DNA from: Candidatus Latescibacterota bacterium | GTDB lineage: Bacteria; Latescibacterota; CBDEFO01 | Direction: 5' to 3' | DNA: 64,000 nucleotides | Assembly: GCA_965248755.1 (NCBI GenBank) | Contig: OZ252149.1 | Span: 2,816,001-2,880,000, forward strand | In this document: piece by piece, positions 44,076 through 62,177 of the stretch | Layout: each line of letters starts with the position of its first letter | How positions within the stretch are numbered: position 1 is the stretch's first letter | Made by a program: the position numbers and the translations under genes | Notes under the pieces: generated by a model | The model's input: only the letters and a program-made list of their open reading frames with translations | What the model was told of the DNA's origin: nothing | The model's database searches: none

Positions 44076-44146
44076 TAGATAAGTAGATAGTAGGTAGGGG
44101 TATATCCTCTTCTCCCTGTCTACTTGTTTGAGATAAAAAATATAGT

Positions 44147-45493: not shown

Positions 45494-45515
45494 CGCTTTT
45501 TAAGTGGATAGAATA

Positions 45516-45663
45516 GAGATTGCTTCGCAGACCCTTCGCTTCGCTCTGGGCTTCCCCGATACATTCAATCGGGGACTCGCAATGACGTTGAAGTGTGCTC
45601 GTAACGATATTGCTTAGCTTCGTCCTTTGGTCATTGCGAGGGCCAAAGTCTCGAAGCAATCTC
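45516..45663. repeat. Inverted pair of REP-like GAGATTGCTTCG...CTCGCAATGAC elements with CCCCGAT palindrome
   Basis: GAGATTGCTTCG...CCCCGATACATTCAATCGGGG.CTCGCAATGAC, then GTCATTGCGAG...CGAAGCAATCTC. Confidence 0.8.
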
Positions 45664-45704
45664 CCCGTTTACTGACTGCTGTCTACTTTGAAAGGAAGGA
45701 GTCG

Positions 45705-46709
45705 ATGCAGGAAATTAGGGAAAGTCACGACTTAGAGGCTATCGAAAGATTGGAAGAGGCAAAGGACGCAATCTGTTCTGAGATCGAAAAGGTGATCGTT
45801 GGACAAAGGCAGATAATAGATCAATTGCTGATTGCTCTTTTTTCAGGCGGGCATTGCCTCATCATCGGCGTGCCCGGCCTTGCCAAGACACTGCTTATAA
45901 ATACGCTTTCTGAGATTCTGGATCTTTCGTTTAGCAGGATACAGTTCACGCCAGATATTATGCCGTCCGATATTACGGGGACGGAGGTGATTGAGGAGGA
46001 TCTGTCCCTGGGGAAAAAGACCTTCCGATTCGTAAAGGGACCTGTCTTTGCAAATGTGATATTAGCAGACGAGATAAACAGGGCGCCTCCCAAGACTCAG
46101 TCGGCTCTTCTGGAGGCTATGCAGGAGCACAAGGTTACGGCTTCGGGAAAGACAATGAAACTTTCCGAGCCGTTCTTTGTGCTTGCCACTCAAAACCCTA
46201 TAGAGCAGGAGGGCACCTATCCACTGCCCGAGGCTCAGCTGGACAGGTTCTTCTTCAGCCTCTGGATAGACTATCCTACCTTTGAGGAAGAAGAACAGGT
46301 AGTTCACAGGACCACGAGCGCATACACCTGGAATGTAAGGAAGGTAGTGAGCGGAGATGACATTATAGACATGCAAAATCTAATAAGGAGGGTTCCAGTT
46401 TCAGATCATGTGGTCAGATACGCTGTGGATTTGGTCAGAAAGACGCGACCATTTGAAAAAGACGCTCCGCCTTACGTTAAGGACATGATCAGTTGGGGGG
46501 CAGGTCCAAGGGCGTCTCAGTATCTCATACTGGGAGCAAAGGCAAAGGCTGCTCTGAACGGACGATGTTCTGTGTCCATCGAGGATGTCAAATCCATTGT
46601 GGTGCCTGTACTAAGACACAGGATAATCACCAACTTCAACGCCGAAGCAGAAGGCGTTGATACAAAAGGGATAGTAACCAGACTGTTGGAGGAGGTCCCC
46701 GATAAATAG
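45705..46709 (+). CDS. MoxR-family AAA+ ATPase
   Basis: GVPGLAKT, RIQFTPD, DEINRAPPKTQSALLEAMQE, ATQNPIEQEGTYPLPEAQLDRF and WGAGPRA; AAGGAG RBS before ATG 45705. Confidence 0.95.
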   Translation: MQEIRESHDLEAIERLEEAKDAICSEIEKVIVGQRQIIDQLLIALFSGGHCLIIGVPGLAKTLLINTLSEILDLSFSRIQFTPDIMPSDITGTEVIEEDLSLGKKTFRFVKGPVFANVILADEINRAPPKTQSALLEAMQEHKVTASGKTMKLSEPFFVLATQNPIEQEGTYPLPEAQLDRFFFSLWIDYPTFEEEEQVVHRTTSAYTWNVRKVVSGDDIIDMQNLIRRVPVSDHVVRYAVDLVRKTRPFEKDAPPYVKDMISWGAGPRASQYLILGAKAKAALNGRCSVSIEDVKSIVVPVLRHRIITNFNAEAEGVDTKGIVTRLLEEVPDK

Positions 46710-46719
46710 AAAGGTCTAT

Positions 46720-47601
46720 TTGGATTATCTGGACCCCGAGGTCGTATCCAGGCTCAGAAGTCTCGACCTTGTGGCGCGGCTGGTCGTGGAGGGATTCATA
46801 ACTGGACTTCATAAGAGCCCGTATCACGGTTTTTCGGTGGAGTTTGCCGAACACAGACAGTATATGCCGGGCGATCCTGTGAGGGACATAGACTGGAGGG
46901 CTTACGGAAAGACGGGACGCCTTTACGTAAAGAAATACGAGGAGGAGACGAACCTAAAGGCGTATATCCTTCTGGACGCAAGCGGTTCTATGGAGTTTAC
47001 CTCAGGGGGCATAACCAAGTTTAAGTACGGATGCTATCTTGCGGCCTCTTTAAGTTATCTTATGCTCAAGCAGAGGGACGCTGTGGGATTGTGCATCTTT
47101 GACAGTCGAATACGCCGCTATGTGCCTCCGCGATCTGTCGGGAGCCATCTTCACACCATACTTAAAGAGATTGACGGCGCAAAAACGGCTCATGAGACGG
47201 ATCTGGCAGGTACTCTCCACACCCTGGCTGAGAGGATAAAAAGGAGAGGCCTAGTGATAGTGATCTCCGATCTTTTGGACGATCCATCTAAGGTGTTGTC
47301 AGGATTTAAGCACTTCCGCCACAGAAAGCACGAACTGGTAATATTCCACATCCTGGACCCCAAGGAACGGGATCTGTCGTTTCCCAGGGAAGCCAGATTC
47401 GTGGATCTTGAAGGCGAAGAACAGCTAGTTACTGAGCCGTGGCACATTCAGAAGGACTACACTTCTTTGATGGACGACCTTGTGAATCGCTATCGCAGGG
47501 AATGCCGCGAAAGTCTCATAGATTATGTCCTGATAAATACGTCAGACAGGTTCGACACCGCGCTTCTGGGATATTTATCCAAAAGGAAAAGGTTAGGGTG
47601 A
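46720..47601 (+). CDS. DUF58-domain protein (MoxR partner)
   Basis: GLHKSPYHGFSVEFAEHRQYMPGD, IDW, EEETN, DASGSM and ISD. Confidence 0.93.
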   Translation: MDYLDPEVVSRLRSLDLVARLVVEGFITGLHKSPYHGFSVEFAEHRQYMPGDPVRDIDWRAYGKTGRLYVKKYEEETNLKAYILLDASGSMEFTSGGITKFKYGCYLAASLSYLMLKQRDAVGLCIFDSRIRRYVPPRSVGSHLHTILKEIDGAKTAHETDLAGTLHTLAERIKRRGLVIVISDLLDDPSKVLSGFKHFRHRKHELVIFHILDPKERDLSFPREARFVDLEGEEQLVTEPWHIQKDYTSLMDDLVNRYRRECRESLIDYVLINTSDRFDTALLGYLSKRKRLG

Positions 47602-49070: not shown

Positions 49071-50354
49071 ATGTTCAAAGATGTTTCAGTCAAATGTGCG
49101 TTGGTTTTCGGAGTCCTTCTCCTGGTTCTGGTGGCCGCCGGTAGCTCTGATGCGAGCAATGCAAGGCTTAGGGCATTGGGTAATGAGCCGATCCTTGTGA
49201 AGGACAGTAGCAATATCTTCGACTTTGTATCCACCGTCAACGATTATACGAACAATGTCTACGTCGAGAACGCCTCGGATAACGCAGGTGTTGGAGACGG
49301 ACAGAACTGGGGCACAGTCGTCTGGGGTATTAGTGAGAACAACATCCTGGGTATCTCTCTGGACAGGCCCTCAGGTCTTACTTTTCCCGCTCGTGGCGAG
49401 CCGGTTCCCATCTGGGTAGTACATTTTTTCAATCTCCTGGGGAGTATCCCTCTGGACGATATCCCTGCGGACGGTATGCCTGCGGACGGTACGCCTCCGG
49501 ACGGTATCCCTCTGGAGGACTTGCTCCAAGCTTTTGGCGAGCTGGCTCCCAGCTCGGCTCCCAGCTCGGCTCCCAGCTCGATAGTAGATCTTATCTATGG
49601 AAGAAAGTTCGATGATACCGACTTCGGCGTGGGACTTGCAATCCTGTTCGATACTGATGACAACGGTGTGGATGTTGAGAACAGCCAGCTCGGCATCGAT
49701 CTTAACGTTGGCGTCGGTTTGGACGTAGGAGAAGCATCAGAGCTCGACATCAACCTCGGCATAGGTTTTACAAGTGTTGAGGAAACTTTACCTGCTAGTC
49801 AGGATTACGACAGCGGAATTAACTTTGGCATGGATATCAGGCTATTCCGTCCGAAAAATGAGAAAACAACCGGTATCCTCGGTGTACGTTTTGGCTTTGA
49901 TACAGCTGCCAAGCAGGCGAACGCGGACGATTTGAATTTGATCACGTTCAAGGCCCTGATCGGCTGTGATCACCAATTGTCTGAAGATGCCAATTTGATC
50001 TTGGGCTTAGCGTTGGAGTTAGAAAATAGAGATAGGCCTGACATGGGCAAAAATGTATCGGAGACCAACATAAGTATCCCTGTTATAACTGCCGCAGTAG
50101 AGATGGGGCTGACAGATTGGTTGGATGTCCGTGCTGGAGCTCACAGAGCCTCAACGTTTGAATTCACAAGCAACGGAGTAGATACCAGTGGTTTCGACAC
50201 GGATTATAACCTCGATTTCGGCGTGGGTCTCAGCCTTGGGGGCTTAACATTGGACGGTGTTATCACCAAGAAATTCCTCGAGACAGGACCGGATATTATC
50301 AGCAATAACCCCGAAGACGTCTTCAGTCAGGTAGCTGTGACCTACAGCTTCTAA
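49071..50354 (+). CDS. Outer-membrane beta-barrel (porin-like) protein
   Basis: GGAGGA RBS, signal peptide, ARLRALG N-terminus, alternating amphipathic strands, C-terminal VAVTYSF (BAM signal). Confidence 0.8.
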   Translation: MFKDVSVKCALVFGVLLLVLVAAGSSDASNARLRALGNEPILVKDSSNIFDFVSTVNDYTNNVYVENASDNAGVGDGQNWGTVVWGISENNILGISLDRPSGLTFPARGEPVPIWVVHFFNLLGSIPLDDIPADGMPADGTPPDGIPLEDLLQAFGELAPSSAPSSAPSSIVDLIYGRKFDDTDFGVGLAILFDTDDNGVDVENSQLGIDLNVGVGLDVGEASELDINLGIGFTSVEETLPASQDYDSGINFGMDIRLFRPKNEKTTGILGVRFGFDTAAKQANADDLNLITFKALIGCDHQLSEDANLILGLALELENRDRPDMGKNVSETNISIPVITAAVEMGLTDWLDVRAGAHRASTFEFTSNGVDTSGFDTDYNLDFGVGLSLGGLTLDGVITKKFLETGPDIISNNPEDVFSQVAVTYSF

Positions 50355-50448
50355 CAGGCACTACAGGTGACAAAAGCAATTCAGCTATTCACAGAAGTTC
50401 ACCTTTCTGGCCTGAAGTAGATCGTCTCAGTATAGTTAAGCATTCCAT

Positions 50449-50489
50449 AAGACACGCTATCACTTTTGATCGTGATAGCGTGTCTTTTT
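50449..50489 (+). terminator. Intrinsic terminator
   Basis: AAGACACGCTATCAC-loop-GTGATAGCGTGTCTT followed by TTT. Confidence 0.9.
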
Positions 50490-50889
50490 GCTATCACGTG
50501 AGATGAAGGTGAGAATTGTGTTTTAGGATAGGGTCTTTCGGATAATCACTTAAAGTTTGCCGAGCAGCTTGGGGAAGATCTCTTAACAATACCACGCGTT
50601 TTCTATACAAACGGTACAGAGAATCGCTGTAGATACCGTAAAGGACGGTAGAGCACATACCGACCTGTATGGTTGACACCAAATTAAGAGTTAAGGTGGT
50701 CTTTGGAGTCGGCTATATAAAGACGCTGCTGGCAGCGCTGTCCTCCTGATTCAACGTATTGTTCCATTCTCAAGCGGGTCAAAATTTTTGTTGACTTTGA
50801 AGGGAAGCGTTATTAAGTTTTACATTAAAGTTGCTTATGGTTTTCTATACACAGAACAGCTTAAGTAATAGAAAGAGGTAATTTAGCAT

Positions 50890-50966
50890 GGCGAACGTAG
50901 CTCAAAGGATAGAGTGCCTGACTGTGGCTCAGGATGTTGCGGGTTCGAGTCCCGTCGTTCGCCCCA
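50890..50966 (+). tRNA. tRNA-His (GUG)
   Basis: G-1, acceptor stem GCGAACG/CGTTCGC, C73, encoded CCA, anticodon arm CCTGA-CTGTGGC-TCAGG, T loop TTCGAGT. Confidence 0.97.
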
Positions 50967-50982
50967 TATATATCTTAGTGAC

Positions 50983-51169
50983 AGGCTCTTTTGGCGTCTG
51001 CGAGATACAGGTGTGGTTTGTCCCTGGTGAATTTGACTGTGCCCACATTCGTCGTACTTTCTGCCGTCACCATTCCTGAATTGAAGGCGGGTCGGCAGTT
51101 CATACAGGGCTAACGGCAAGATACCGAAAGTGACTACCGCCTCGCAAATTTCAAAAGGGCTTCTTTTTT
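50983..51169 (+). ncRNA. Candidate structured RNA/attenuator between tRNA-His and the hisS-like gene
   Basis: Nested long-range pairings AGGCTCTTTTG/CAAAAGGGCTT, TGCGAG/CTCGCA, CCCTG/CAGGG and GTGAATT/AGTTCAT, followed by a T6 tract. Confidence 0.45.
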
Positions 51170-51218
51170 ATCTGTGCAGGATTCTATTATCATTAGTTAC
51201 GCTACAAGGAGCGTGGAA

Positions 51219-52733
51219 ATGCCTTCGTTCAGAAGACCAAGGGGTACTGAAGACTTTCTCCCAGATGAGATGATCATAAGAAGTTACGTCGAGGGTATTA
51301 TGAGGGAGACGTTTGAATCTTACGGTTTTCAGCAGGTGCAAACGCCTATCTTTGAGGAATTTGCGTTGCTTGCAGCGCGTTCAGGCGAGGAGATTCGGGA
51401 AGGTATGTTCACCTTCGTAAGCGACGACACTGAATATGCCCTGCGACCAGAACTAACGGCGCCTGTATGCCGCCTTGTGGCTACGGGAGAGTTAGAGCCT
51501 TTCCCAAGACCGTATAAGGTCTACTGTATCGGACAATGTTTCAGATACGAGCGGCCGCAGGCGGGACGATACAGGGAGTTCAGGCATGCCAGTTTGGAGC
51601 TTATAGGATCCTCATCACCGATGGCAGACGCCGAGGTGATCAGCGTCGCTTCCAGTATACTTGACAAGTTGGGAATTTCCGACTACACCTTGAAAGTCGG
51701 CAACATCGGCATCTTTCGTTATGTTCTGGCGAGCAAGGGTTTCGACTATAACTTCCAAAGTAAGATTATAAGTGATATAGATAATGTCATCAGCCTGCGA
51801 GAAAAATGCGAAACTATTAGAGGGCGATCCAACTTTGAACGCGATGACATCGAATACGTCAAAGGAAAAATCAGAGACCTTTACACCTTTCAGGATGAGG
51901 TGGACTACGAGGGAGAACATGAGATCGTACCTCAGCGGGTCCTCGATGAGGCTTCTATAAGAAGATGGCTTGATGAGCTTCCACTCGTCGCTGAGGACAC
52001 ATACCGTAGCATCTGGGTAAAAAAGGACGTTATAGGTGAAGAGCTGGCAGATCTCTTAATCAATATATCGAAAGTCAGAGGAAGCAAAGATGAAACCCTC
52101 CAAGCTGCAAAAGACCTCATCTGGAATACAGATGCAAAGGGTGCTTTCAAAGAGCTTCAGGAGGTGCTCAACTGGCTGGAACACTATGGAGTGAGTAATT
52201 ACCAGGTGGTCCTGGGAGTAGCACGCGGCCTGGACTACTATACGGGAACTGTATTTGAGATTGATTGCCCGTTGCTCGGCGCTCAAAAGCAGATATGTGG
52301 TGGGGGGAGATACGACAAACTGGTAAGCGAATTTGGGGGGCCGGAGATACAGGCGACAGGATTTGCTTTCGGCTTCGACAGAGTCACAGAGGCGTTTAAA
52401 AAGAGTGACGGGATCGTCCCCCCCCCAAAGGTCCATATCTTTGTCGCTGCTGTTTCAGAAGATATGAAGGCAAAGGCGGTCGAAATAGCAGGTATGTTAA
52501 GAGGTCGCGGTAAGAGGGTGGAAGTCGATATGCTGAAACGGGGCCTGCAGGACCAACTCGGTTATGCCTCCGGCATAAACTGCGATTATGCTGTGATCGT
52601 GGGTCCGGACGAGCTTGAGAAGGAGTCCGTGATTCTAAGAAATATGAGGACTCGAGAGCAAGAATTAGTTGCTATCTGTTCGCTTGCCGATTCGGTAAAC
52701 CAGTCCCCGATTGAATCTATCGGGGGTAGCTGA
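51219..52733 (+). CDS. hisS: Histidyl-tRNA synthetase (divergent, archaeal-like, enlarged insertion domain)
   Basis: RPRGTEDF, TPIFE, LRPELTA, FRYERPQAGRYREF, ARGLDYYTG and GGGRYD...GFAFGFDR, plus a C-terminal anticodon-binding domain; AAGGAG RBS before ATG 51219. Confidence 0.85.
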   Translation: MPSFRRPRGTEDFLPDEMIIRSYVEGIMRETFESYGFQQVQTPIFEEFALLAARSGEEIREGMFTFVSDDTEYALRPELTAPVCRLVATGELEPFPRPYKVYCIGQCFRYERPQAGRYREFRHASLELIGSSSPMADAEVISVASSILDKLGISDYTLKVGNIGIFRYVLASKGFDYNFQSKIISDIDNVISLREKCETIRGRSNFERDDIEYVKGKIRDLYTFQDEVDYEGEHEIVPQRVLDEASIRRWLDELPLVAEDTYRSIWVKKDVIGEELADLLINISKVRGSKDETLQAAKDLIWNTDAKGAFKELQEVLNWLEHYGVSNYQVVLGVARGLDYYTGTVFEIDCPLLGAQKQICGGGRYDKLVSEFGGPEIQATGFAFGFDRVTEAFKKSDGIVPPPKVHIFVAAVSEDMKAKAVEIAGMLRGRGKRVEVDMLKRGLQDQLGYASGINCDYAVIVGPDELEKESVILRNMRTREQELVAICSLADSVNQSPIESIGGS

Positions 52734-52735
52734 CC

Positions 52736-54046
52736 ATGGAGGAAAAGCCATTAATCAACCTTGTCTTCGCCGGCCATCTGGATGGCGGAAAATCGACTCT
52801 GGTCGGGAGAATGCTCTACGAACTCGGTCGCTTACCAGAGCAGACGATCTCCAGGTTAAGAAGACACGCTAAGGCGGCTGGAAAAGAGACATTTTTCTAC
52901 GCCTTCAACTCAGACCGAAGTCTCGAGGAACGTGAAAGAGGCATAAGCATAGAAGCACACTTTGATGACTTTGAGACGGAGCAGAGAAGGTTCAATATCA
53001 TCGACGCTCCCGGGCACCAAGACTTTGTAAAGAATATGATCATGGGGGCGGCAAAGGCAGATGTCGGGGTCTTGGTACTGGATGCTCAAGAGACCTCTCA
53101 AGAAGAGCTACAGCCTCAGACGAGGGAGCATCTTATTCTGCTCCACTCCCTCGGAGTCGAAAAGCTTATTGTAGTCGCTAATAAAATGGATCTGGTGGAC
53201 TACTCCAGGGAGATCTATGAATCCTTAAAGATCAAAATAGAAGATTTTCTCAAGCAAGTCCTGTGTAAGTTCCAGGATGAGGTTGTATATGTTCCTGCCT
53301 CAGCATACTGTGGAGAAAACGTCATTGAATCATCCGATAGGTTGCTGTGGTATTCTGGCCCTACGTTTCTGGAGGCTCTGGAAGGCATAGAACAGCCTCA
53401 CAGACTTGTGGATGCGCCTCTTCGAATGCCGATTGTCAGGACGTTCAACGTCCAGTTTGGCGCTACGGCCACCGGAAAGATAGAGACGGGAAGAGTTCGA
53501 CCGGGTGATACGGTCGTAATCGTTCCGTATCCTGGAATAGGTTCTATAACGGGACGTGTCAGTTCGATAAAATGTAAGGATGAAGATAAAAAGGAGGCAA
53601 CTGCCGGAGATGATGTCGGTCTCCTCTTGGAACAGTTAGAGCAGGGGTTCGTAATACGGAAGATTAAAAAGGGATTTATGCTTGCCGGCCCTGAGCATCC
53701 TCCGGTCGAGGCAGAAAGGTTCAAGGCCCGGATTGTAGTGTTAGACCATCCGTCCGAAATCAGAGCTGGTTATACGCCGTACCTGCATTGCCATCAAGCG
53801 TCCCTCCCATGCCGAATTACAGAAATTGAAGATGTACGGGACTCAAAGAGTAACGAGCCAAAAGAGTCGAATAGTGGAAGTCTTGTAAATGGCGATACGG
53901 CAACAGTGTGGATCGAACCTCAAAAGCCTCTCGTAATAGAAAAGGCACAGGATTTTCCTCGGTTAGGGAGATTTGCATTACGAGACGGAAGAACTATAGG
54001 AAGCGGCACGTGCCTAGAGATTGTCCCAAAAGAAAATAGACAGTAG
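52736..54046 (+). CDS. Translational GTPase most similar in motifs to archaeal/eukaryotic EF-1alpha (divergent paralogue)
   Basis: INLVFAGHLDGGKSTLVGRMLY, ERERGISI, DAPGHQDFVKNMIMGA, QTREH, NKMD, PASAYCGENV, HPSEIRAGYTP and FPRLGRFALRD; three domains, 436 aa. Confidence 0.88.
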   Translation: MEEKPLINLVFAGHLDGGKSTLVGRMLYELGRLPEQTISRLRRHAKAAGKETFFYAFNSDRSLEERERGISIEAHFDDFETEQRRFNIIDAPGHQDFVKNMIMGAAKADVGVLVLDAQETSQEELQPQTREHLILLHSLGVEKLIVVANKMDLVDYSREIYESLKIKIEDFLKQVLCKFQDEVVYVPASAYCGENVIESSDRLLWYSGPTFLEALEGIEQPHRLVDAPLRMPIVRTFNVQFGATATGKIETGRVRPGDTVVIVPYPGIGSITGRVSSIKCKDEDKKEATAGDDVGLLLEQLEQGFVIRKIKKGFMLAGPEHPPVEAERFKARIVVLDHPSEIRAGYTPYLHCHQASLPCRITEIEDVRDSKSNEPKESNSGSLVNGDTATVWIEPQKPLVIEKAQDFPRLGRFALRDGRTIGSGTCLEIVPKENRQ

Positions 54047-54165
54047 AGAGGGGCACATGCACCCATTACCCATCTCAAGAGGTCGGTGGAACAGACATTC
54101 TTTTCTGTTCTTTAGAAGTAGACAGTAAGTTAGGCGGTGTTCCTACCTGCTACGTAAACTAAACA

Positions 54166-54924
54166 ATGGATACCAAGAAATCTACAAAGAAGCTGAAGAT
54201 AGCCCTTCCCAAGGGAACCCTGCAATCAGATACGTTAGCTCTGTTTACGAAGGCGGGCTACACGATAGGAGGCTACAACACAGAGAACCGGAACTACAGG
54301 CCCACGATCCACGACCAAGAGATAGAACTCAAGGTCTTGCGACCGCAGGAGATCCCACTTTTTGTATCCGATACGGCATATGATTTGGGTATTGCCGGCA
54401 TAGACTGGGTGCTGGAAAACGGCATTCAGCAGCGCGATCAGACCCAACAGATAGAGGAGATTCTGGATCTGGAATATGGGCCGGTGCAATTGGTGCTTGC
54501 TGTGCCTGAGGATTGGTCGGATGTGGATTCGTTCGGGGACCTTATGGAATTTCACTGGGGAAACGTAAGGATCGCCACAGAGTATCTCAATCTGGCCTCG
54601 AAATATGTCCTTGAACGCACCGATTCAGAGCCCAGCATCAGATCGCCCTGGAGCCAGAGGTATCGTCAGCATACGTCGAGGGTGGAGCTTCTGCACTCGT
54701 TTGGAGCAAGTGAAGGTAAGCCTCCGGAAGATAGCGAGGCTATAATAGATATTGCAAGTCCAAAGGCGACAACAATAAAGGAAAATGGGTTGAAGATAGT
54801 AGATGTCATATTAACATCTACGGCTCGACTTTTGGCTTCATCCAAAGCCCTTGCTGATCCTTGGAAAGCTGTGAAGATAAACGAAGTCAAAGAGAAGCTG
54901 GCAAAAGCCATCTCGTCCGATTGA
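54166..54924 (+). CDS. hisG: ATP phosphoribosyltransferase, short form lacking the C-terminal regulatory domain
   Basis: LKIALPKG, LRPQEIP, DLGIAGIDW, RIATEY, SFGASE and STARL; 252 aa. Confidence 0.88.
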   Translation: MDTKKSTKKLKIALPKGTLQSDTLALFTKAGYTIGGYNTENRNYRPTIHDQEIELKVLRPQEIPLFVSDTAYDLGIAGIDWVLENGIQQRDQTQQIEEILDLEYGPVQLVLAVPEDWSDVDSFGDLMEFHWGNVRIATEYLNLASKYVLERTDSEPSIRSPWSQRYRQHTSRVELLHSFGASEGKPPEDSEAIIDIASPKATTIKENGLKIVDVILTSTARLLASSKALADPWKAVKINEVKEKLAKAISSD

Positions 54925-55135
54925 TCCGAAGGAGAATTCCGCTTCGAGATTGCTTCGTCAGACAGGAATGTCTGACCCACCTTTTTATATATGTTGGTAG
55001 GACAGACATTTTTGTCTGTCCTGAAGGCCTGGGCAAGCAACGTCATTGCGACCCCCGATTTAATCGGGGGCAGCGAAGCAATCTCAAAGATTGTCCATCC
55101 CCAGGTTTGATTGCTCTGCTTACGAGAGTGAACCT

Positions 55136-56407
55136 ATGCAAGTCTATAGATTAAATGACCTGTCCGAAGCCCAAAGGGATAAAATACTCAAAAGGTCAGA
55201 AGCCGAGTTTGAGAACCTCATTCCCTACGTGCAAGAGATTATGGATGACGTCAGACAAAATGGAGATGAGGCTCTCTTGAGGCTGACCGAACTACATGAC
55301 CGCGTAAGAATATCGGACATTGCCGTCGCGGATGAAGAGTTCGACAGAGCCTACGAGGAAGTGGGGGATCCTGGAGTCTCTGCCCTTAAACACGCGATGC
55401 GAAATCTGGAGGTCTTCCACAGGACCCAACTCGTCGAAGAGGAGATAGTTCAGGTGGACGAAGGCATCCGAATCGGTCGCCTTAATCGACCCGTTGAGAA
55501 AGTCGGCATCTATATTATCAGCGGTTACACCTCCGAGGTGCTGATGAACGGGGTGCCCTCTGGGATTGCGGGCTGTAAAGAGCGTGTCATCTGCACTCCC
55601 CCGCAAGAGGGTGGAAGCGTCCCCGCATCGATTTTAGTTGCGGCGGATCTTGTCGGCGTACGGAGGATATTTAAGGTAGGAGGTGCGCAGGCAATTGCAG
55701 CCATGACCTACGGTACGGAGACGATTCCAAAGGTTTACAAGATCTTTGGAGCGGGGAATAACTACGTGACAGTGGCTAAGATGCTGGCCTTTGGCCACGT
55801 GAACATAGATCTTCCAGCCGGCCCAAGCGAGATTTTCATCATCGCCGACGAGAGCGCCGATGCAAGATTTGTCGCCGCCGATCTGATCTCTCAGGCGGAA
55901 CACCCAAACTCAGCGTGTATACTTATCACAACATCTCAAGCTTTAGCTGCTGACGTCAAAAGGCAAATTGATCAGCAACTTGCCCTCCTCCCCACAAAGG
56001 AGTGTGTGCAGGGAGCAATCGAAAAGAACGGCGCGATCGTAATTGCGGACGATCTTGCCGAGTCCATAGACTTTGCCAACGCATATGCGCCCGAACATCT
56101 GGAGATTATGACCACAGACGATCAGGCGATCCTCGAAAAGATCACGAACGTCGGCTCCGTATTTCTGGGTCCGTACTCGACGGTACCGGCGGGGGATTAT
56201 GCCTCAGGCAGCAATCACGTGCTGCCCACAGGTGGTTTTGCAAAGATGTTCTCCTCTCTTTCGGTTGACTCGTTTATCCGTAAGGTGGAGGTGCAACAAT
56301 TAAGCAAAGAAGGGCTTTCTTCAATCCGAAAAGCTGTGGGATATTTGGCTGATGTTGAGGGATTTGCCGCCCACAAAAGGGCAGTGGAAATCCGTCTTGA
56401 GAATTGA
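55136..56407 (+). CDS. hisD: Histidinol dehydrogenase (divergent)
   Basis: GGAQAIAA, DLPAGPSE, SQAEH, APEHLE, GDYASGSNHVLPT and EGFAAH; probable ATG at 55136. Confidence 0.92.
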   Translation: MQVYRLNDLSEAQRDKILKRSEAEFENLIPYVQEIMDDVRQNGDEALLRLTELHDRVRISDIAVADEEFDRAYEEVGDPGVSALKHAMRNLEVFHRTQLVEEEIVQVDEGIRIGRLNRPVEKVGIYIISGYTSEVLMNGVPSGIAGCKERVICTPPQEGGSVPASILVAADLVGVRRIFKVGGAQAIAAMTYGTETIPKVYKIFGAGNNYVTVAKMLAFGHVNIDLPAGPSEIFIIADESADARFVAADLISQAEHPNSACILITTSQALAADVKRQIDQQLALLPTKECVQGAIEKNGAIVIADDLAESIDFANAYAPEHLEIMTTDDQAILEKITNVGSVFLGPYSTVPAGDYASGSNHVLPTGGFAKMFSSLSVDSFIRKVEVQQLSKEGLSSIRKAVGYLADVEGFAAHKRAVEIRLEN

Positions 56408-56425
56408 CTAAGGGGTAGACGAAAA

Positions 56426-56629
56426 ATGAGGCGTGAAGAGCACAGATGGCTCTTTGACCATCTTGATATAGTTAGACAGTTTACGGGAGAATGGATCGCC
56501 GTATTGGATGATGAGATCATAGCTCACAGCAAGGACTTTCAAAACGTGATGGACGAAGGGAGAAAGATACACCCTAACCCTCTACTTATCTGGGTGCGTG
56601 AGGATATAGGGACCGGTGGGACAGTATAA
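56426..56629 (+). CDS. Small DUF5678-like protein
   Basis: EHRWL...FTGEWIAV....IIAHSKD pattern; AAGGGG RBS. Confidence 0.6.
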   Translation: MRREEHRWLFDHLDIVRQFTGEWIAVLDDEIIAHSKDFQNVMDEGRKIHPNPLLIWVREDIGTGGTV

Positions 56630-56797
56630 TCCCAAATGAGTATCGAGTAGTCCCCGATTCCCGACAGGTTCGATCGGGGGTAGTGGATAGGTCAATGTGG
56701 CAGCAAGCCACGAACCGGTTTTCCCTACGTAGCTGTCTACTATGTTGGATCTCTATGATCGTGTCCAGTTGTCAATTTTGCCCATAATCTCTACTGA

Positions 56798-57811
56798 TCA
56801 GGGCTTTTGTGCACGAGAGGTCAAGTCGTTGCGCGTCTGCCCTGCTATGTTATGGTGCTTCTCGCCCGACGCATCCACGGGGTCAACGTGTATGGTGGCA
56901 TTGGAGAGGTAGCCCAGGTGATTCAAAAGTTGGCTCTGTACCTTATTGGCTATCTCATGCCCTTGTGCCACGGTTAGCTCGGATTCCACAGCGATGTTCA
57001 CTTCGGCGTGCAGTCGATGTCCTATCCATCTTACTCTAACTTCGGTGACCTCGCGGACCTCTGAAACTTGATTCGCAGCTCCTCTTGCCTCCTGGATGAT
57101 CTCAGGATCTACTCCGTCTAAAAGGCGGCTGAATACGGATTTTCCAGCTTTCCACACTATCCAGAGAATCGCAGCGGTGATAAGGAGTCCTACAATGGGG
57201 TCTGACAGCGGATAGCCGAGCCAGATGCCCAGCGCTCCGAACAACACAGCAAGACTGGTCCAGCCGTCTACGCGCGCGTGGTAACCGTCCGCAACAAGAG
57301 CCGCACTGCCTATCTCCTTGCCTACCTTAATGCGGAAAAGTGCAACAGCTTCATTGCCCCCAAACCCAACTATCGAAGCGGTGATCACCGCCCACAGATG
57401 CTCTACATTCTGCGGATGTATTAACCGATTGATCGATTCGTACCCCGCGATAACAGCGCTGAACAGAATAATAAACACGATAACTACTCCGGCAAGATCT
57501 TCAACCCTGCCGTAGCCGTAAGAGAATCTCCTGTTGGGCTTTATGCTCACAAGCTTGAAAGCGATCCACAGTGGGAGAGCTGTGGCAGCATCGCCGAAGT
57601 TGTGAATCGTATCTGCCAAAAGAGCAACGCTTCCAGAGAGCCAGACGACCAGGACCTGGAGCAGTGCAGTAAGCATCAGTACGGAAAATGACCATTTAAT
57701 AGCCCAGATTCCCCGATCACTACTCATCACTGCAGGGTCCACAACTCCGTGGGTATGGCTGTGTGAACCGGGATGATCGCCCTTGTGCGAATGCCTGTGT
57801 CCTGACACCAT
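56798..57811 (-). CDS. Cation diffusion facilitator (CDF) transporter
   Basis: His-rich N-terminus, ALLADTIHNFGD, FSYGYGRVEDL, ADGYHARVD and a C-terminal dimerisation domain (IHVDP). Confidence 0.93.
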   Translation of the reverse strand: MVSGHRHSHKGDHPGSHSHTHGVVDPAVMSSDRGIWAIKWSFSVLMLTALLQVLVVWLSGSVALLADTIHNFGDAATALPLWIAFKLVSIKPNRRFSYGYGRVEDLAGVVIVFIILFSAVIAGYESINRLIHPQNVEHLWAVITASIVGFGGNEAVALFRIKVGKEIGSAALVADGYHARVDGWTSLAVLFGALGIWLGYPLSDPIVGLLITAAILWIVWKAGKSVFSRLLDGVDPEIIQEARGAANQVSEVREVTEVRVRWIGHRLHAEVNIAVESELTVAQGHEIANKVQSQLLNHLGYLSNATIHVDPVDASGEKHHNIAGQTRNDLTSRAQKP

Positions 57812-59353: not shown

Positions 59354-61198
59354 ATGCCCAGCAGGATAAAGATACTCCCACTGAGCCTGTCCAACAAGAT
59401 AGCAGCAGGAGAAGTTGTCGAACGCCCCGCATCTGTCGTCAAGGAACTGATCGAAAACTCAATAGATGCAGGCGCCTTGAGGATAAGTGTAGAGGTCGCC
59501 GCTGGCGGCAAGCAGGCAATAAGGGTCTCCGACGACGGAACTGGAATGTCCAAAGACGAGGTTGCCCTGGCGTTAGAACGCCACGCCACAAGCAAGATTT
59601 CATCTGAGTCCGATCTGGAGTCTATAGTCTCACTCGGATTCAGGGGCGAAGCCCTGCCCAGCATAGCCTCCGTCTCCAAGATGGCAGTCGAATCGCGCTC
59701 TTCCGAAGACCCTACAGGGACAAAGGTGGTCGCAGAAGGGGGAAAGATCAAAGCTATAGAGGACATGGGCAGAGATACGGGAACCACTGTAACTGTAAGC
59801 CGACTCTTTTACAACACTCCTGCAAGGAGAAAATTTCTGAAAGGCACTGACACTGAGATGAGGCACATCACCCGCACTGTAGCCGATCATGCTCTGGCCT
59901 ATCCGGAAATAGGTTTTACGCTTATGCACAGCCGCAGAGAGATATTCCGCCTTCTCAGAGGCTCAAACGTCAACAAGAGAGTCGAAGATATCTTCGGGAG
60001 TTCAGTAATGAAGCGAACGGTGCCCCTGTGCCTTGACGGAAAAGGCATCGCCATCGAGGGCTTCATCGGCGATCCGGAGATAGCGAGGAAATCCAGACTG
60101 CATCAGGCTATATTTGTGAACAGGCGTCCCATAACCAGTAAGATCCTCAACCACGCTATCTATGCCGCCTACGAGGGCCTCCTTCCCAAAGACAGCCACC
60201 CATTCTTTGCCGTCTTTTTCCAGATAGACCCCAGATACGTGGACGTCAACGTTCATCCCGCAAAAAGAGAGGTGCGCTTCTCAGATGATCAAAAAGTCCA
60301 CGATGCTCTATACGAATGTGTAAGGTCAGCCCTCTCTACCGGAGGGTTGATCCCCCAGATGGACATTCCTCAAGTCCAGGAACCCCGTGCTTCCAGCCCA
60401 ACTGTGCGTGACACGCAGACAGAGTCGTCCCCCGTATACGAAAAGCAGAACCGAGAGCTCTTTGGGTCGAAGATGGACGAGGCACCCCAGGAATACCTAC
60501 AATCTGATCTCTCCCCCAAGAAGGATCTGAGCTCTCAGTTCTCTCTACCCCTATCCAGCACAGAAAAGGTCCTCAGGTCTTCGGTTTCGAAACCTCAAGA
60601 AGAGGAGATACACCACACAGCATCGGAGCACGCTGATGTCTCTTTATGGCAGCTCCACGAGAAATACATCTTCGCCCGCATCAAAAACGGACTCATAATA
60701 GTCGATCAGCATGTCGCCCACGAGCGCATCATCTATGAGGAGACCTTGAAGAACTTAAGCGAAGCCCCCGCATCGGCACAGCAGCTGCTTTTGCCTGTCA
60801 CAATGGAGTTAGGGGTAAAGGAGATCGAAGTTTTGATGGAGATCATCCCCCTCTTAGAGCAGATGGGATTCGGCATGAGAGACTTCGGAGGGAGAACCGT
60901 AGTTATCGATGCTGTCCCCGCAGATATTATGAGCAGTTGGGGCGATGGAGAGGTGTTGAAGGCCATTATAGACGATATAATTCAAGAGGGTCACCCCAAA
61001 TCAGAGTACAAGGAAGAGCTAGCGGCGTCGTACGCCTGCCACACCTCCATAAAGGCTGGACAGGGTCTATCCACCGCGGAGATGCAGACCCTCATAGACC
61101 GGCTCTTCGCCACGGAAAATCCCTTCGTATGTCCGCACGGACGCCCCATTGTGGTCAGAATGCCCATCGAAGAACTCGATAAGAGATTCGGAAGGTGA
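59354..61198 (+). CDS. mutL: DNA mismatch repair endonuclease MutL
   Basis: IAAGEVVERPASVVKELIENSIDAG, GFRGEAL, DVNVHPAKREV, DQHVAHERI, ACH and CPHGRP. Confidence 0.98.
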   Translation: MPSRIKILPLSLSNKIAAGEVVERPASVVKELIENSIDAGALRISVEVAAGGKQAIRVSDDGTGMSKDEVALALERHATSKISSESDLESIVSLGFRGEALPSIASVSKMAVESRSSEDPTGTKVVAEGGKIKAIEDMGRDTGTTVTVSRLFYNTPARRKFLKGTDTEMRHITRTVADHALAYPEIGFTLMHSRREIFRLLRGSNVNKRVEDIFGSSVMKRTVPLCLDGKGIAIEGFIGDPEIARKSRLHQAIFVNRRPITSKILNHAIYAAYEGLLPKDSHPFFAVFFQIDPRYVDVNVHPAKREVRFSDDQKVHDALYECVRSALSTGGLIPQMDIPQVQEPRASSPTVRDTQTESSPVYEKQNRELFGSKMDEAPQEYLQSDLSPKKDLSSQFSLPLSSTEKVLRSSVSKPQEEEIHHTASEHADVSLWQLHEKYIFARIKNGLIIVDQHVAHERIIYEETLKNLSEAPASAQQLLLPVTMELGVKEIEVLMEIIPLLEQMGFGMRDFGGRTVVIDAVPADIMSSWGDGEVLKAIIDDIIQEGHPKSEYKEELAASYACHTSIKAGQGLSTAEMQTLIDRLFATENPFVCPHGRPIVVRMPIEELDKRFGR

Positions 61199-61259
61199 AC
61201 CGAGAGTTGTAGACAGGGAAACTCCTCTCCCGCCTGTCTACTCATTTGATGACCCCTGT

Positions 61260-62177
61260 ATGAGAAAACTGCCCCTGATAGTCGGACCCACAGGAATAGG
61301 CAAGACCGAACTTTCCCACCAAATCGCAGATAGGCTCAAAGACGTTGAAATTGTCTGTGCCGATTCGCGACAGGTCTACAGGTACCTCAACGTAGGCACG
61401 GCAAAACCTACGCAAACCCAAATGTCTCAAGTGCCGCATCACTTCATAGATATAGTCGATCCCGACTGTACATACACTGCCGGGGTCTATGGGAAAGAGG
61501 CAAGAAGGGTCATAGACGACATCTTCAAAAGACGTAAACACCCCATAGTCGTGGGCGGCTCCGGTCTCTACATCCGCGCCCTCTTAGACGGGCTCTTCGA
61601 GGAGGAACTCACAGACCCCGAAGTAAAAAGACAGCTCCAGAAAGAAATAGAGTCGAAAGGTCCGCAAGACCTCCATTATGAACTATCCCGCGTCGATCCT
61701 GCCTCAGCTCAAAGGTTACATCCAAACGATAGACAGAGGATAGTCCGAGCTCTTTTGGTCTTCCGATCCAGCGGATATCCTCTTTCCTATCTCCACGAAA
61801 CTTCTCCCCCGCAAGAGTTGGGCGCAGAGCCCTTAATCTTCGGCATCACCACGGAAAGAGGAAAACTATACCGGAAGATAGAAGAAAGAGTGGATAAGAT
61901 GATACGAGATGGTCTTATAGATGAGGTGAGATCGATCCTTGAAATGGGTTATTCAAAGGACCTCAACTCGCTCCAGACAGTGGGATACAGAGAGGTATTC
62001 CCCCTTTTGGACGGACAGGCAACGCTCCAGGAGACTACGGACGCCATCAAGAGGAACTCCAGAAGATACGCCAAGAGACAGTTCACGTGGTTCAGAGGCG
62101 ATAGCAGAATAAGATGGGTGGAAAAGAGAGAGAAAGAGTCTATTATAGAGGAACTTGAGGCGTGCCTGGGGTCTTGA
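61260..62177 (+). CDS. miaA: tRNA (adenosine(37)-N6)-dimethylallyltransferase
   Basis: GPTGIGKT, DSRQVY, GTAKP, VGGSGLY, HPND.QR and RRYAKRQFTWF; probable ATG at 61260. Confidence 0.97.
   Translation: MRKLPLIVGPTGIGKTELSHQIADRLKDVEIVCADSRQVYRYLNVGTAKPTQTQMSQVPHHFIDIVDPDCTYTAGVYGKEARRVIDDIFKRRKHPIVVGGSGLYIRALLDGLFEEELTDPEVKRQLQKEIESKGPQDLHYELSRVDPASAQRLHPNDRQRIVRALLVFRSSGYPLSYLHETSPPQELGAEPLIFGITTERGKLYRKIEERVDKMIRDGLIDEVRSILEMGYSKDLNSLQTVGYREVFPLLDGQATLQETTDAIKRNSRRYAKRQFTWFRGDSRIRWVEKREKESIIEELEACLGS

Follow-up and report, generated by a model that had tools for sequence, protein, structure and literature searches.

Five co-oriented genes in a bacterium of the Latescibacterota, encoding tRNA-His, HisS, a GTPase resembling EF-1alpha, a short HisG and HisD, lie within a 64,000-nucleotide stretch of DNA, here called the window. 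The genes for the histidine functions are single-copy. The GTPase belongs to a clade separate from canonical elongation factors, is strictly associated and co-inherited with a long form of histidyl-tRNA synthetase (HisRS) in both bacteria and archaea, and is rare in the host phylum. The function we infer, at about even confidence, is that of a mobile histidine-decoding cassette, in which the GTPase would partner HisRS and bind His-tRNA(His). The GTPase might be a helper of histidine-charged tRNA that has so far gone undescribed; no published description of a HisRS-linked GTPase cassette was found in the literature.

The locus and its genome

Table 1. Features of the histidine locus, in window coordinates.
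Feature	Position	Strand	Evidence
tRNA-His(GUG)	50890..50966	+	ARAGORN (window and genome), Rfam tRNA 65.1 bits
Spacer/leader between tRNA and hisS, 252 nt	50967..51218	+	Rfam scan, sequence
hisS, long-form HisRS, 504 aa	51219..52733	+	TIGR00442, genome tblastn
EF-1alpha-like GTPase, 436 aa	52736..54046	+	family scores, clade split, pocket table, synteny
Hairpin repeat, GTPase-hisG spacer	54085..54111	.	repeat search, sequence
hisG, short-form ATP phosphoribosyltransferase, 252 aa	54166..54924	+	TIGR00070, Pfam HisG
Cluster of hairpin repeats, hisG-hisD spacer	54942..55089	.	repeat search, sequence
hisD, histidinol dehydrogenase ORF	55091..56407	+	TIGR00069, genome tblastn

A preliminary description of this DNA saw the five genes in one direction, with the GTPase ATG 2 nt past the synthetase stop. 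Both points are confirmed: all five are on the + strand, the TGA of hisS ends at 52733, and two bases separate it from the ATG at 52736. The hisS ORF (51174-52733; Table 1 gives the other three) opens at GTG 51174. The true start is likely ATG 51219, which yields the same length as a 99% identical protein (P0125). Similarly, hisD probably starts at ATG 55136.

ARAGORN and Rfam both place the tRNA at 50891-50966, with G-1 encoded at 50890, discriminator C73 and an encoded CCA. It is one of 47 tRNAs that ARAGORN finds genome-wide, and it is as canonical (G-1:C73, GUG) as it had been said to look. An Rfam E-value scan of 50300-56900 returned only the tRNA and one chance-level match, and no known RNA family in the spacer before hisS.

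The repeat between GTPase and hisG is a member of a dispersed hairpin family (repeat families D1/I1), and many short joints occur there in the runs. The cluster between hisG and hisD contains repeats D1, I1 and I4; runs X2, X6 and X7 have raised depth and many joints over it.

The preliminary description allowed for a chimeric join with archaeal DNA, and the named proteins closest to the GTPase are indeed archaeal. That the locus arose in assembly, or by the joining of contaminating archaeal DNA to bacterial sequence, is nevertheless hardly credible. The complete genome is a single contig of 4,540,735 bp (4.54 Mb) without N, the GC fraction of the locus (0.47-0.50) brackets the genome value of 0.489, and a sister species repeats the arrangement at 98% identity. 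Single contigs from other runs, X2 (50800-54975, 0 differences) and X7 (50800-54927), span tRNA to hisG with no break at the hisS/GTPase boundary. The flanks of the locus are bacterial as well, with genes for a porin-like OMP, a CDF transporter and mutL.

HisRS, HisG and HisD each return only themselves when searched with tblastn against the complete genome. There is no hisZ in it: the hisZ model matches HisRS alone, at 241.4 bits against a cut-off of 271.65. A genome-wide look for separate canonical copies, as proposed earlier, thus gave no second hisS, hisG, hisD or tRNA-His; it did turn up a separate normal tuf (C1:528544-529704), whose EF-Tu has an ordinary amino-acid pocket. A separate SelB-like ORF and a tRNA-Sec are also present. 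hisH, hisA, hisF and hisI are found elsewhere, at C1:2351100-2357700. In the rest of the window, a Pfam scan that missed several ORFs detected no further his genes, in agreement with their reported absence.

One of the two explanations first offered was a paralogous pathway that makes, charges and delivers a modified histidine or histidine analogue. This fails because the locus holds the genome's only tRNA-His, hisS, hisG and hisD, and the tRNA is canonical.

The enzymes

All three enzymes score above their family cut-offs: hisS with 368.3 bits on TIGR00442 (cut-off 286.75), hisG with 146.4 on TIGR00070 (75.75), where Pfam reports HisG only, and hisD with 483.8 on TIGR00069 (243.8). hisD is ordinary.

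HisRS is a complete synthetase, including the anticodon-binding domain, and its catalytic motifs are invariant (alignment A3). Its insertion domain is roughly 80 aa larger than usual, and residues ~217-329 are unmatched in the PDB alignment. In the predicted fold the insertion consists of 7 helices (pLDDT 92). Its best fold matches are the insertion regions of HisRS and HisZ, with Z scores of 7.9 and 7.8 and 105 and 101 of 170 residues aligned; among HisZ structures these scores are 7.8 for 3od1_B and 5.4 for 1z7m_A.

HisG has no C-terminal regulatory domain and carries an insert of ~18 aa. Aligned with module-type HisG and that of relatives, the window protein is divergent at the PRPP loop. 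A short hisG without this domain, in a genome without hisZ, is contrary to the expectation in PMC8305728. Each of the four proteins had been said to deviate from its family consensus in substrate-binding motifs. That is true of this loop and of the GTPase pocket described below, but not of HisRS, given its invariant motifs.

The GTPase

The GTPase has the full-length three-domain architecture of an elongation factor (GTP_EFTU, D2 and D3/eEF1A_C), with intact G motifs and an invariant switch-II His (H94). It falls below both curated EF-1alpha cut-offs (NF008969, 450.4 against 502; TIGR00483, 418.1 against 540.1), and also below those of the CysN models (233.2 against 336.1; 218.6 against 590) and the selB model (131.9 against 242.25). 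In a tree, 60 EF1A-like rows split from 22 canonical aEF1A rows on a branch with 100 SH-aLRT.

PMC6386890 lists six amino-acid-pocket positions in EF-Tu: H67, E216, D217, F219, T229 and N274. The corresponding residues in the window GTPase are F76, V234, R235, F237, T246 and D293. In the same order, the clade (n=60) has F/Y in 58, L in 54, R in 60, F in 57, A in 50 and D in 57, against H in 56, Q in 63, D in 58, Y in 56, V in 62 and N in 68 for canonical aEF1A (n=69). By homology to EF-Tu, on which this argument is built, four of the six positions are re-specified, and Arg stands in for Asp217 in 60/60 members. A SelB-derived EF-Tu design in the same source carries H67Y, E216D, D217R and N274R; these are the positions changed here, to F/Y, L, R and D. 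A pocket with Arg and Asp is no obvious fit for imidazole.

Residues E260 and R263 of EF-Tu we take to be contacts to A76 of the tRNA. Their equivalents are kept in the clade, as E in 53/60 and H in 55/60. The window GTPase reads IKCKD where the clade reads IEWQH, with K279 and D282 at these two places, so that judging by its sequence its binding of the tRNA 3' end may be different or absent.

It is improbable that the GTPase is a ribosomal factor dedicated to histidine ('EF-His'), delivering His-tRNA(His) to the A site instead of EF-Tu or aEF1A. Its architecture, intact G motifs, H94, a pocket altered where SelB-based designs alter it, and a layout of tRNA, synthetase and factor would all suit such a role. 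The sole tRNA-His is canonical, however, the host EF-Tu pocket is ordinary, and a general factor of its own is retained in every host tested (this bacterium, the sister species and three archaeal genomes). Bacterial and archaeal ribosomes differ in their factor-binding stalks, yet a single GTPase family is found in both domains. To our knowledge, bacteria also lack an aEF1B-type exchange factor.

The predicted complex of HisRS and GTPase scored 0.43 (runs 0.42, 0.43 and 0.46), while the best of 3 controls scored 0.00. The mark for this score is met by 116/157 solved complexes and 2/215 mismatched pairs, counts that are rough here since our own alignments were used; scores at 0.60 or under are reached by only 18/157 solved complexes and by both passing mismatches. 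At least 83% of contacts are shared between the runs, and partner pLDDT is at least 79. This model lends weak support to a HisRS-GTPase complex.

Distribution and gene order

Among 133 genomes of an archaeal phylum, the GTPase is present in exactly three (G075-G077), on top of canonical aEF1A. Exactly these three also have the long HisRS, as their only HisRS above cut-off, which makes 3/3 genomes against 0/130. In the host phylum the GTPase occurs in 2/168 genomes and 1/49 genera. Both counts represent one lineage each, as kin are not independent. Five host-phylum relatives have a hisS of normal length, and hisG ORFs of 294-405 aa.

Of the top GTPase matches, 24 pair with long-HisRS matches from an apparent shared source, judged by equal length of the longest contig. 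Over 25 paired proteins the pairwise distances correlate with r = 0.955, which 0/2000 permutations reach, though such a correlation is expected for adjoining co-inherited genes whether or not their products bind. A weak search of longer proteins gave no HisRS-GTPase fusion.

A clade-specific DNA pattern retrieved 23 metagenome loci, and the GTPase is present in 20. Four of those 20 have no upstream DNA, leaving 16 informative loci. In 14 of the 20, tblastn finds a long hisS directly upstream of the GTPase, with hisG in between in 4/14; in a 15th (L115), a C-terminal HisRS fragment upstream was spotted by eye. The GTPase therefore follows a long HisRS in 15/16 informative loci. The counter-case is L120, where 187 nt of non-coding DNA lie upstream of the GTPase and no hisS is directly there. 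The surrounding genes are of archaeal (L7Ae, S28e, thermosome, TrmB) as well as bacterial (L25/TL5) type. tRNA-His adjoins in 5/20 loci, as it does in the sister species.

Module-type hisG with the same ~18-aa insert is inside or beside the pair in 5/20 loci. The order is hisS-hisG-GTPase in L106, L113, L119 and L121, with ORFs that overlap or nearly abut. In L110 the hisG is divergent, and in L103 hisI/hisE/hisA-F are beside the pair. All hisG-bearing loci fall with the window in one 28-row subclade. HisD was matched in 0/23 loci, so it is outside the conserved module elsewhere. Of the four-gene order that the preliminary description proposed to look for, hisS-GTPase shows strong conservation across other bacteria and archaea, hisG recurs in some loci, and hisD does not take part.

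Could the GTPase be a hitch-hiker, an archaeal EF-1alpha paralogue carried along with hisS, without a tie to histidine, as a spare factor or decaying relic? The window copy does depart from its clade in an otherwise conserved stretch, and it shares a rather long branch (0.47) with P0005. We consider this very unlikely in view of the adjacency across two domains, the perfect co-occurrence with long HisRS in the archaeal genomes, and the invariant residues that the clade has of its own. Comparison with the sister species indicates purifying selection, with a dN/dS of 0.19 in hisS (5 differences), 0.26 in the GTPase (21) and 0.16 in hisG (14), and both species of the genus have an intact GTPase ORF.

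A metabolic role with HisG

The other explanation first offered was a co-option in the manner of CysN and HisZ. Here the GTPase and HisRS would regulate or energise the short, HisZ-less ATP phosphoribosyltransferase; HisRS would replace HisZ, and GTP hydrolysis or sensing of His-tRNA would control the first step of histidine synthesis. As a general account this is unlikely, although the short hisG, the lack of hisZ and the recurrence of his genes at the pair within one subclade are in keeping with it.

There is a precedent in CysN, described in PMC4342817 as a metabolic GTPase derived from aEF1A. CysN, which with CysD forms a sulfate adenylyltransferase, reached bacteria by archaea-to-bacteria transfer and works with a metabolic enzyme; the GTPase here is also beside an ATP-using, nucleotide-activating enzyme (HisRS, HisG). 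Unlike CysN, it scores below the CysN cut-offs, neighbours hisS and hisG instead of cysD, keeps as a clade the tRNA-end residues, and has archaeal clade members too. Those residues and the re-specified pocket would be needless in a pure enzyme-activating GTPase.

In the HisZ-HisG(S) system, too, a HisG of the short form, without regulatory domain, is paired with a HisRS-family protein whose gene is close by, and our insertion model matches HisZ structures. But here HisRS is catalytically intact, complete and the only HisRS, there is no HisZ, and a GTPase is added. HisG is moreover not a core partner, because the three archaeal genomes keep long hisS and GTPase without hisG (0/3, genome completeness being uncertain) or real hisA/F, His_biosynth giving only partial matches of 29.5-34.7 bits. 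No hisG lies between hisS and GTPase in 10/14 of the tblastn loci. The co-option is thus possible for the bacterial subclade, and not as the core role.

Other known systems

SelB belongs to the EF1 family and serves a single aminoacyl-tRNA, as this GTPase would, and both are encoded alongside a general factor. The GTPase here differs in having no C-terminal mRNA-binding extension, and in its link with the gene of a synthetase. Recoding plays no part here, since the genome's one tRNA-His is of the ordinary kind and has a sense anticodon.

In archaea and eukaryotes, LeuRS-EF1A and ValRS-eEF1H physically pair a synthetase with an EF-1alpha-type factor for hand-over of charged tRNA. Those pairs use the general factor, whereas here a dedicated paralogue, co-inherited with one synthetase, would do so, and prediction lends weak support to binding.

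The likeness to pylTSBCD and selABCD that had been pointed out is apt: these too join a tRNA, its charging enzyme and accessory or biosynthetic genes, and are mobile between lineages. They add a 21st or 22nd amino acid, however, while the system here is that of a standard one, and the cassette holds its genus's only hisS and hisG, unlike in the five relatives tested.

Interpretation

The cassette would have been acquired horizontally, and would now be this bacterium's housekeeping system for decoding histidine. We know of nothing in the biochemistry of HisRS catalysis that would require a GTPase. In the reading we prefer, the GTPase would be translationally coupled to hisS and act as obligate partner to the long HisRS. 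In the GTP-bound state it would bind His-tRNA(His) through the re-specified amino-acid pocket, taking the charged tRNA from HisRS to channel or protect it.

A role independent of the ribosome, or upstream of EF-Tu/aEF1A, is more likely than replacement of the general factor, because the family serves hosts with bacterial and archaeal ribosomes and the hosts tested keep their own factor. In histidine prototrophs, the short HisG would have joined the cluster, and the HisRS-GTPase pair may therefore report the charging of His-tRNA to the first enzyme of the pathway.

The locus and its genes

The preliminary description placed five co-oriented genes in a row here, and this observation is correct: tRNA-His, hisS, an EF-1alpha-like GTPase, hisG and hisD all lie on the plus strand. 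The hisS reading frame closes with a stop codon ending at 52733; the ATG of the GTPase follows at 52736. There is no GC step at the locus.

Genes of the locus, in window coordinates
Feature	Coordinates	Strand	Remarks
tRNA-His(GUG)	50891-50966	+	G-1 encoded at 50890; discriminator C73; CCA end encoded
hisS	51174-52733 (ORF)	+	likely start ATG 51219, giving 504 aa; above curated NCBIfam cut-off
EF-1alpha-like GTPase	52736-54046	+	436 aa; full EF architecture
hisG	54166-54924	+	252 aa; above curated NCBIfam cut-off
hisD	55091-56407	+	likely start ATG 55136; above curated NCBIfam cut-off

Five short contigs from the metatranscriptome run X1 match the locus at 95-99% identity, and one (52570-52910) spans the hisS/GTPase junction. 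These are not counted as support: DNA may be present in an RNA library, and its assembly proves neither transcription nor a single transcript.

The GTPase-hisG and hisG-hisD spacers are occupied by hairpin repeats of the GGACAGACA...TGTCTGTCC type (54085-54111, 54957-54981 and 54993-55022). In the contigs of three sequencing runs these repeats have raised depth and many short joints, as is expected of a dispersed REP-like family. A second hairpin family (CCCGAT...ATCGGGGG) is found at 52706-52729, 55053-55071 and 56660-56683. Its copy within the hisS 3' end is coding: it specifies the C-terminal tail of HisRS, directly ahead of the stop codon next to the GTPase start.

The flanks are ordinary housekeeping genes, with anthranilate synthase components at the window start (205-2476) and, near its end (59354-62177), mutL and then an IPP transferase of the miaA type. 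Further features are a 1565-aa protein with M28 peptidase, MacB-like periplasmic and FtsX permease domains (12109-16806), and a run of DUF4159, FG-GAP/ASPIC-redoxin, DUF4175, TPR, MoxR AAA and DUF58/vWA genes (35023-47601), which resembles a Bat-type cluster.

Copy number in the host genome

The host genome is a single contig of 4,540,735 bp and is 98% complete. Searched as a whole with tblastn, it has matches to HisRS, HisG and HisD at the cassette locus only. The same search with the GTPase also returns an ordinary EF-Tu (28.5% identity, C1:528544-529704 on the complete-genome contig), whose gene adjoins an EF-G-like match, and some weaker GTPase relatives. ARAGORN finds 47 tRNAs, including one tRNA-His and one tRNA-Sec. 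The genes hisH, hisA, hisF and hisI are located elsewhere, at C1:2351100-2357700, each above its cut-off.

One earlier suggestion was that the cassette is a second, paralogous pathway specific to a histidine analogue. This fails, because tRNA-His, HisRS, HisG and HisD occur nowhere else in the genome: the cassette holds the only ones that the cell has.

The tRNA-Sec lies at C1:2906382-2906479, and a 674-aa SelB-like frame is present at about C1:1710770. Besides EF-Tu and the GTPase linked to HisRS, the host therefore already has one dedicated factor of the EF family in use.

Placement of the GTPase

The GTPase has the GTP_EFTU, D2 and D3/eEF1A_C domains, with intact G1-G5 motifs (GHLDGGKS, DAPGH, NKMD, SAY). 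It nevertheless scores below the cut-offs of the EF-1alpha models (TIGR00483, 418.1 vs 540.1; NF008969, 450.4 vs 502), and below those for SelB (TIGR00475, 131.9 vs 242.25) and CysN (TIGR02034, 233.2 vs 336.1). CysN is similar in being a GTPase derived from archaeal EF-1alpha (aEF1A) in bacteria, but apart from the failed model scores its partner is a different one: the neighbours here are hisS and hisG, with no cysD.

The best database relatives are metagenome proteins (46-59% identity), followed by an NCBI 'GTP-binding protein' of Theionarchaea, of a Chloroflexota bacterium and of an unclassified bacterium. Canonical aEF1A ranks after these at 41-46%. An ESM Atlas search with the GTPase yielded generic EF-1alpha, EF-Tu and CysN clusters only.

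In a quick maximum-likelihood tree, a branch of length 0.48 with an SH-aLRT of 100 parts 60 EF1A-like rows from 22 canonical aEF1A rows. The groups were preset by hit rank and by loci, and therefore the clean split is the result of this tree, not the grouping. The CysN-like row is a stop-to-stop frame cut to its initial 470 residues, and it sits on a 2.61 branch; its placement is meaningless. The 60 sequences also share two 4-residue inserts (at VPYPG and before IKKG) and fixed differences from canonical aEF1A. The GTPase thus belongs to a separate clade, set apart from canonical aEF1A. It is also not the general elongation factor of its host, given that an ordinary EF-Tu is present; archaeal carriers likewise keep their canonical aEF1A.

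Conservation of the neighbourhood

Among the matches listed by a first search over species-genome contigs with two patterns, all 80 loci were canonical archaeal EF-1alpha (37-44% identity), with no clade member; the pattern GH[VL]DHGKST is common to all aEF1A. A second search, with a degenerate DNA pattern specific to the clade, led to 23 metagenome loci, 20 of which encode the GTPase.

In 14 of these 20, the GTPase has directly upstream a HisRS with a length of about 500 aa and 48-60% identity to the window protein. In four of the 14 (L106, L113, L119 and L121) a short hisG is sandwiched between the two genes; at L102 hisG follows the GTPase, as in the window. At L115 the last 26 codons of a long-type HisRS, judged by eye, are found upstream. 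L120 is the sole locus to break synteny: hisS is missing from its place directly upstream, and the 187 nt before the GTPase (L120:1-187) are non-coding and AT-rich, with stops in all frames. The other four loci have no upstream DNA.

This means that hisS and the GTPase adjoin in 15 of 16 informative metagenome loci, which bears out the conservation of the neighbourhood on which the preliminary description had depended. Of the hisS-EF1A-hisG-hisD order proposed there, the first two genes hold up and hisG is present in some loci, but hisD is absent from all 23 metagenome loci searched.

The surroundings are archaeal for L103, L110 and L115 (L7Ae, S28e, TrmB, thermosome), and L106 carries the bacterial ribosomal protein L25/TL5. 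A tRNA-His adjoins the module in L102, L106, L110, L113, L121 and in the other species of the host genus that has the same arrangement (the sister species). All of these tRNAs have G-1 and C73 encoded.

Some of these contigs have further features. L113, which carries tRNA-His and hisG, also has a gene for a pyruvoyl-type histidine decarboxylase (PF02329, L113:3649-4617) about 2 kb from the GTPase. The archaeal module contig L103 encodes a GyrB with an intein (L103:9467-11803). At L108:1935-3415, the hisS beside the GTPase matches as two overlapping pieces in different frames, from a frameshift or a sequencing error.

Co-inheritance and distribution

Among the top GTPase matches, 24 have counterparts among the long HisRS proteins, those with the enlarged insertion domain, whose longest contig is of identical size. 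Pairwise distances within 25 paired GTPase and HisRS proteins correlate at r = 0.955, a value matched by none of 2000 permutations. From these shared sources and correlated distances it follows that the pair is inherited as a unit. Linkage to the long HisRS is strict, and it extends across two domains of life.

The locus L040 led to an archaeal phylum, of which 133 genomes were surveyed. Two EF-1alpha-type genes occur in exactly three of the 133 (G075-G077), and in the host phylum the GTPase is found in 2 of 168 genomes and 1 of 49 genera; the three and the two are each essentially one lineage, so these counts should not be read as statistics. In G075-G077 one gene resembles the Theionarchaea 'GTP-binding protein' (83-92% identity), and its companion (about 45%) is a canonical aEF1A. 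A full-length long HisRS (78-90% identity) is present in exactly these three genomes, where it adjoins the GTPase and is the sole HisRS above the cut-off. In the 55 other archaeal genomes with a HisRS match, this match is interrupted where the insertion is missing, and most of the listed frames have 427-464 aa.

Neither hisG nor a real hisA or hisF was found in G075-G077, genomes for which completeness is not given. There the GTPase is independent of hisG, and therefore goes with the synthetase and not with histidine synthesis.

In the host phylum, the hisS match spans 1197-1257 nt in five relatives vs 1440 nt in the host, and the hisG frames of these relatives are 294-405 aa. Three relatives have an alignable HisG with a C-terminal extension, which the window HisG lacks. 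The HisG rows of two more relatives (L148, L149) came from the wrong strand and were disregarded, as were HisRS rows of relatives picked by longest ORF, which represented other genes. Because of this distribution, we infer that the host genus acquired the cassette and that it replaced the native hisS and hisG. The host genus has only the hisS and hisG of the cassette; the five relatives tested have a hisS of normal length and a longer hisG frame.

The amino-acid pocket and the tRNA end

Six positions form the amino-acid pocket of EF-Tu, in the available text of PMC6386890: H67, E216, D217, F219, T229 and N274. They were mapped by sequence alignment to the EF-Tu of the host genome itself, and counted over 60 clade and 69 canonical aEF1A sequences.

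Residues at the equivalents of the EF-Tu pocket positions
EF-Tu position	Clade	Canonical aEF1A
H67	F/Y 58/60	H 56/69
E216	L 54/60	Q 63/69
D217	R 60/60	D 58/69
F219	F 57/60	Y 56/69
T229	A 50/60	V 62/69
N274	D 57/60	N 68/69

The window GTPase has F76, V234, R235, F237, T246 and D293, which is not the general-purpose set (H, Q/E, D, Y/F, V/T, N). Four of the six positions are switched throughout the clade, which by the standard of SelB points to a re-specified aminoacyl pocket. According to the same available text (PMC6386890), the substitutions H67Y, E216D, D217R and N274R are those of an EF-Tu variant whose design was based on SelB. Nature altered these very positions when a dedicated factor arose.

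Two other EF-Tu residues, E260 and R263, are ones that we take to contact the 3' end of the tRNA. The residues at both equivalents are kept in the clade, with E in 53/60 at the first and H in 55/60 at the second. Judged from the alignment, the clade combines a re-specified pocket with retained 3'-end-contacting residues. The window GTPase is the exception at these two positions, with K279 and D282. Its residues 279-283 (53570-53584) read IKCKD vs IEWQH in the clade, and the Glu aligned to E260 is lost.

SelB is the textbook dedicated EF-Tu/EF1A paralogue for a single aminoacyl-tRNA, and to our knowledge such paralogues are very rare. The likeness to SelB is in the pocket; the mRNA-binding extension and the recoding tRNA of SelB are lacking here. 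The 436-aa GTPase stops at domain 3.

The long HisRS and its predicted complex with the GTPase

The HisRS scores 368.3 vs a cut-off of 286.75 on TIGR00442 and has an HGTP_anticodon domain at residues 422-508. The RPE, FRYERPQAGRYREF region, GGGRYD and GFAFGFDR motifs are invariant or nearly so in the HisRS alignment (A3). With class II motifs, HisA/HisB motifs and an anticodon-binding domain, it has what defines a histidine--tRNA ligase. It was also considered as a HisZ and rejected: TIGR00443 gives 240.8 vs a cut-off of 271.65, and the protein has both an anticodon-binding domain and intact catalytic motifs.

In the best PDB sequence match, 1wu7, residues 20-216 and 330-511 are aligned and the stretch between them is passed over. 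A model of this insertion segment (170 residues, folded with 10 homologues) is confident, with seven helices, a pLDDT of 92 and a pTM of 0.85. Its best structural matches are insertion regions from human HisRS (Z 7.9 over 105 aligned residues), a HisZ (Z 7.8) and the HisRS-like domain of Gcn2 (Z 6.2); in the wide VIA-align search, where such matches have Z 5.0-7.9, helical proteins that are unrelated score about as high. Foldseek against the PDB returned nothing at E <= 0.001.

Because the best structural matches are insertion regions of HisRS, HisZ and Gcn2, the modelled extra length is best described as an enlarged HisRS insertion domain and nothing more specific, with conserved positions of its own. 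An exchange-factor mimic or other known domain was rejected on the same matches, which leaves room for a family not listed. The insertion (about residues 162-331 of the 504-aa form) would be the obvious candidate for a surface on which the GTPase docks.

A prediction of the HisRS-GTPase complex (one job, with self-made paired alignments) scores 0.43 (runs 0.42, 0.43 and 0.46), and the best of three controls scores 0.00. The contact agreement between runs is at least 83% and the partner pLDDT at least 79. In a benchmark, 116 of 157 solved complexes attained the mark, as did 2 of 215 mismatched pairs; the range of 0.60 or under holds only 18 of the 157 and both passing mismatches. The outcome is graded as weak support, and given the strong prior from synteny it lends no more than mild support to binding between HisRS and the GTPase. 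As weak evidence, a search for fusions of the two among proteins of 764-2180 aa found only four eukaryotic HBS1-like proteins (34-36% identity).

The short HisG

With 252 aa the HisG is of the short form: it scores 146.4 vs a cut-off of 75.75 on TIGR00070, matches PF01634 only and has no C-terminal regulatory domain. The HisG proteins of the module loci (window, L102, L106, L113, L119 and L121) have in common an insert of about 18 aa and the lack of this domain. Organisms with a short hisG are expected to harbour hisZ, as put in the accessible part of PMC8305728. A model search of the host genome for hisZ returned the HisRS itself, below the cut-off, and one match of 17.7 bits, so no HisZ. The single-copy HisRS and the absence of HisZ were checked in the host genus and the three archaeal genomes only.

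The PRPP loop of the window HisG (residues about 195-205) reads DIASPKATTI; in five module-type relatives it is DNT(E/S)(T/S)G.TL, and the canonical form is D-x-T-E/S-T/S-G-x-T/S-L. Still, this is the sole hisG of the genome, where the other pathway genes searched for (hisD, hisH, hisA, hisF and hisI) are all present. Compared with the sister species, dN/dS is 0.19 for hisS, 0.26 for the GTPase and 0.16 for hisG, from few differences. Despite its divergent loop, hisG is under purifying selection in this comparison.

The short HisG may work alone, or HisRS, the GTPase or both may take the place of HisZ. The pairing resembles HisZ-HisG in that a short HisG goes with a protein of the HisRS family, but HisZ is catalytically dead and has no anticodon-binding domain, unlike this HisRS. 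The other earlier suggestion was a CysN-like co-option, in which the GTPase and a HisZ-like HisRS serve the short HisG. A short HisG without HisZ is indeed what the genome has, and HisRS or the GTPase as substitute is what survives of this idea; against it, G075-G077 keep hisS and the GTPase without hisG.

Proposed role

Our reading is that the GTPase, present alongside the general factor of its host, is a specialist of the EF-1alpha family that would be bound to HisRS and would bind His-tRNA(His). It would receive the charged tRNA from the long HisRS in a GTP-dependent way. Binding to HisRS, binding to His-tRNA, the direction of the hand-over and any signalling to HisG are all putative steps. 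Complexes of synthetases with EF1A are known, and are among the closest systems.

Such a factor could deliver His-tRNA to the ribosome. This is less likely, because members of this one family work in bacterial as well as archaeal hosts, whose factor-binding stalks differ. A protein partner that mimics tRNA (Pelota or aRF1), as for aEF1A, is unlikely here because the host genome lacks an eRF1/Pelota-type domain: the eRF1_2 model has 0 matches in it, and the control was positive in the four archaea.

The available text of a 2015 survey of translational GTPases has no subfamily linked to histidine, and names CysN as the only clear subfamily born of horizontal transfer (PMC4342817). No paper that connects HisRS to an EF-1alpha-type GTPase came up in a literature search, and the subfamily tables of PMC4342817 could hold unclassified bacterial EF1A-like sequences. 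NCBI models label the clade proteins 'GTP-binding protein' only.

The association between HisRS and the GTPase is robust. A wider proposal, which we regard as possible but rather doubtful, is 'EF-His': a natural amino-acid-specific member of the EF-Tu/EF-1alpha family that has not been described before, co-evolved with the long HisRS and travelling with tRNA-His between archaea and bacteria as a self-contained cassette for decoding histidine. In prototrophs it would be connected to a short HisG that lacks HisZ, and the pathway would be gated by the charging of His-tRNA, read by the GTPase, and not by free histidine.

The presence of a short HisG in a complete genome that lacks HisZ bears on the long-standing question of how HisZ originated from HisRS. 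The finding also poses the question of why a GTPase would be needed by HisRS or by His-tRNA(His), which has an additional base pair at G-1. If the proposal is true, the decoding system of a standard amino acid can be modular, and transferable as a unit of tRNA, synthetase and factor. It would then also be a natural template for engineering orthogonal sets of factor, synthetase and tRNA.
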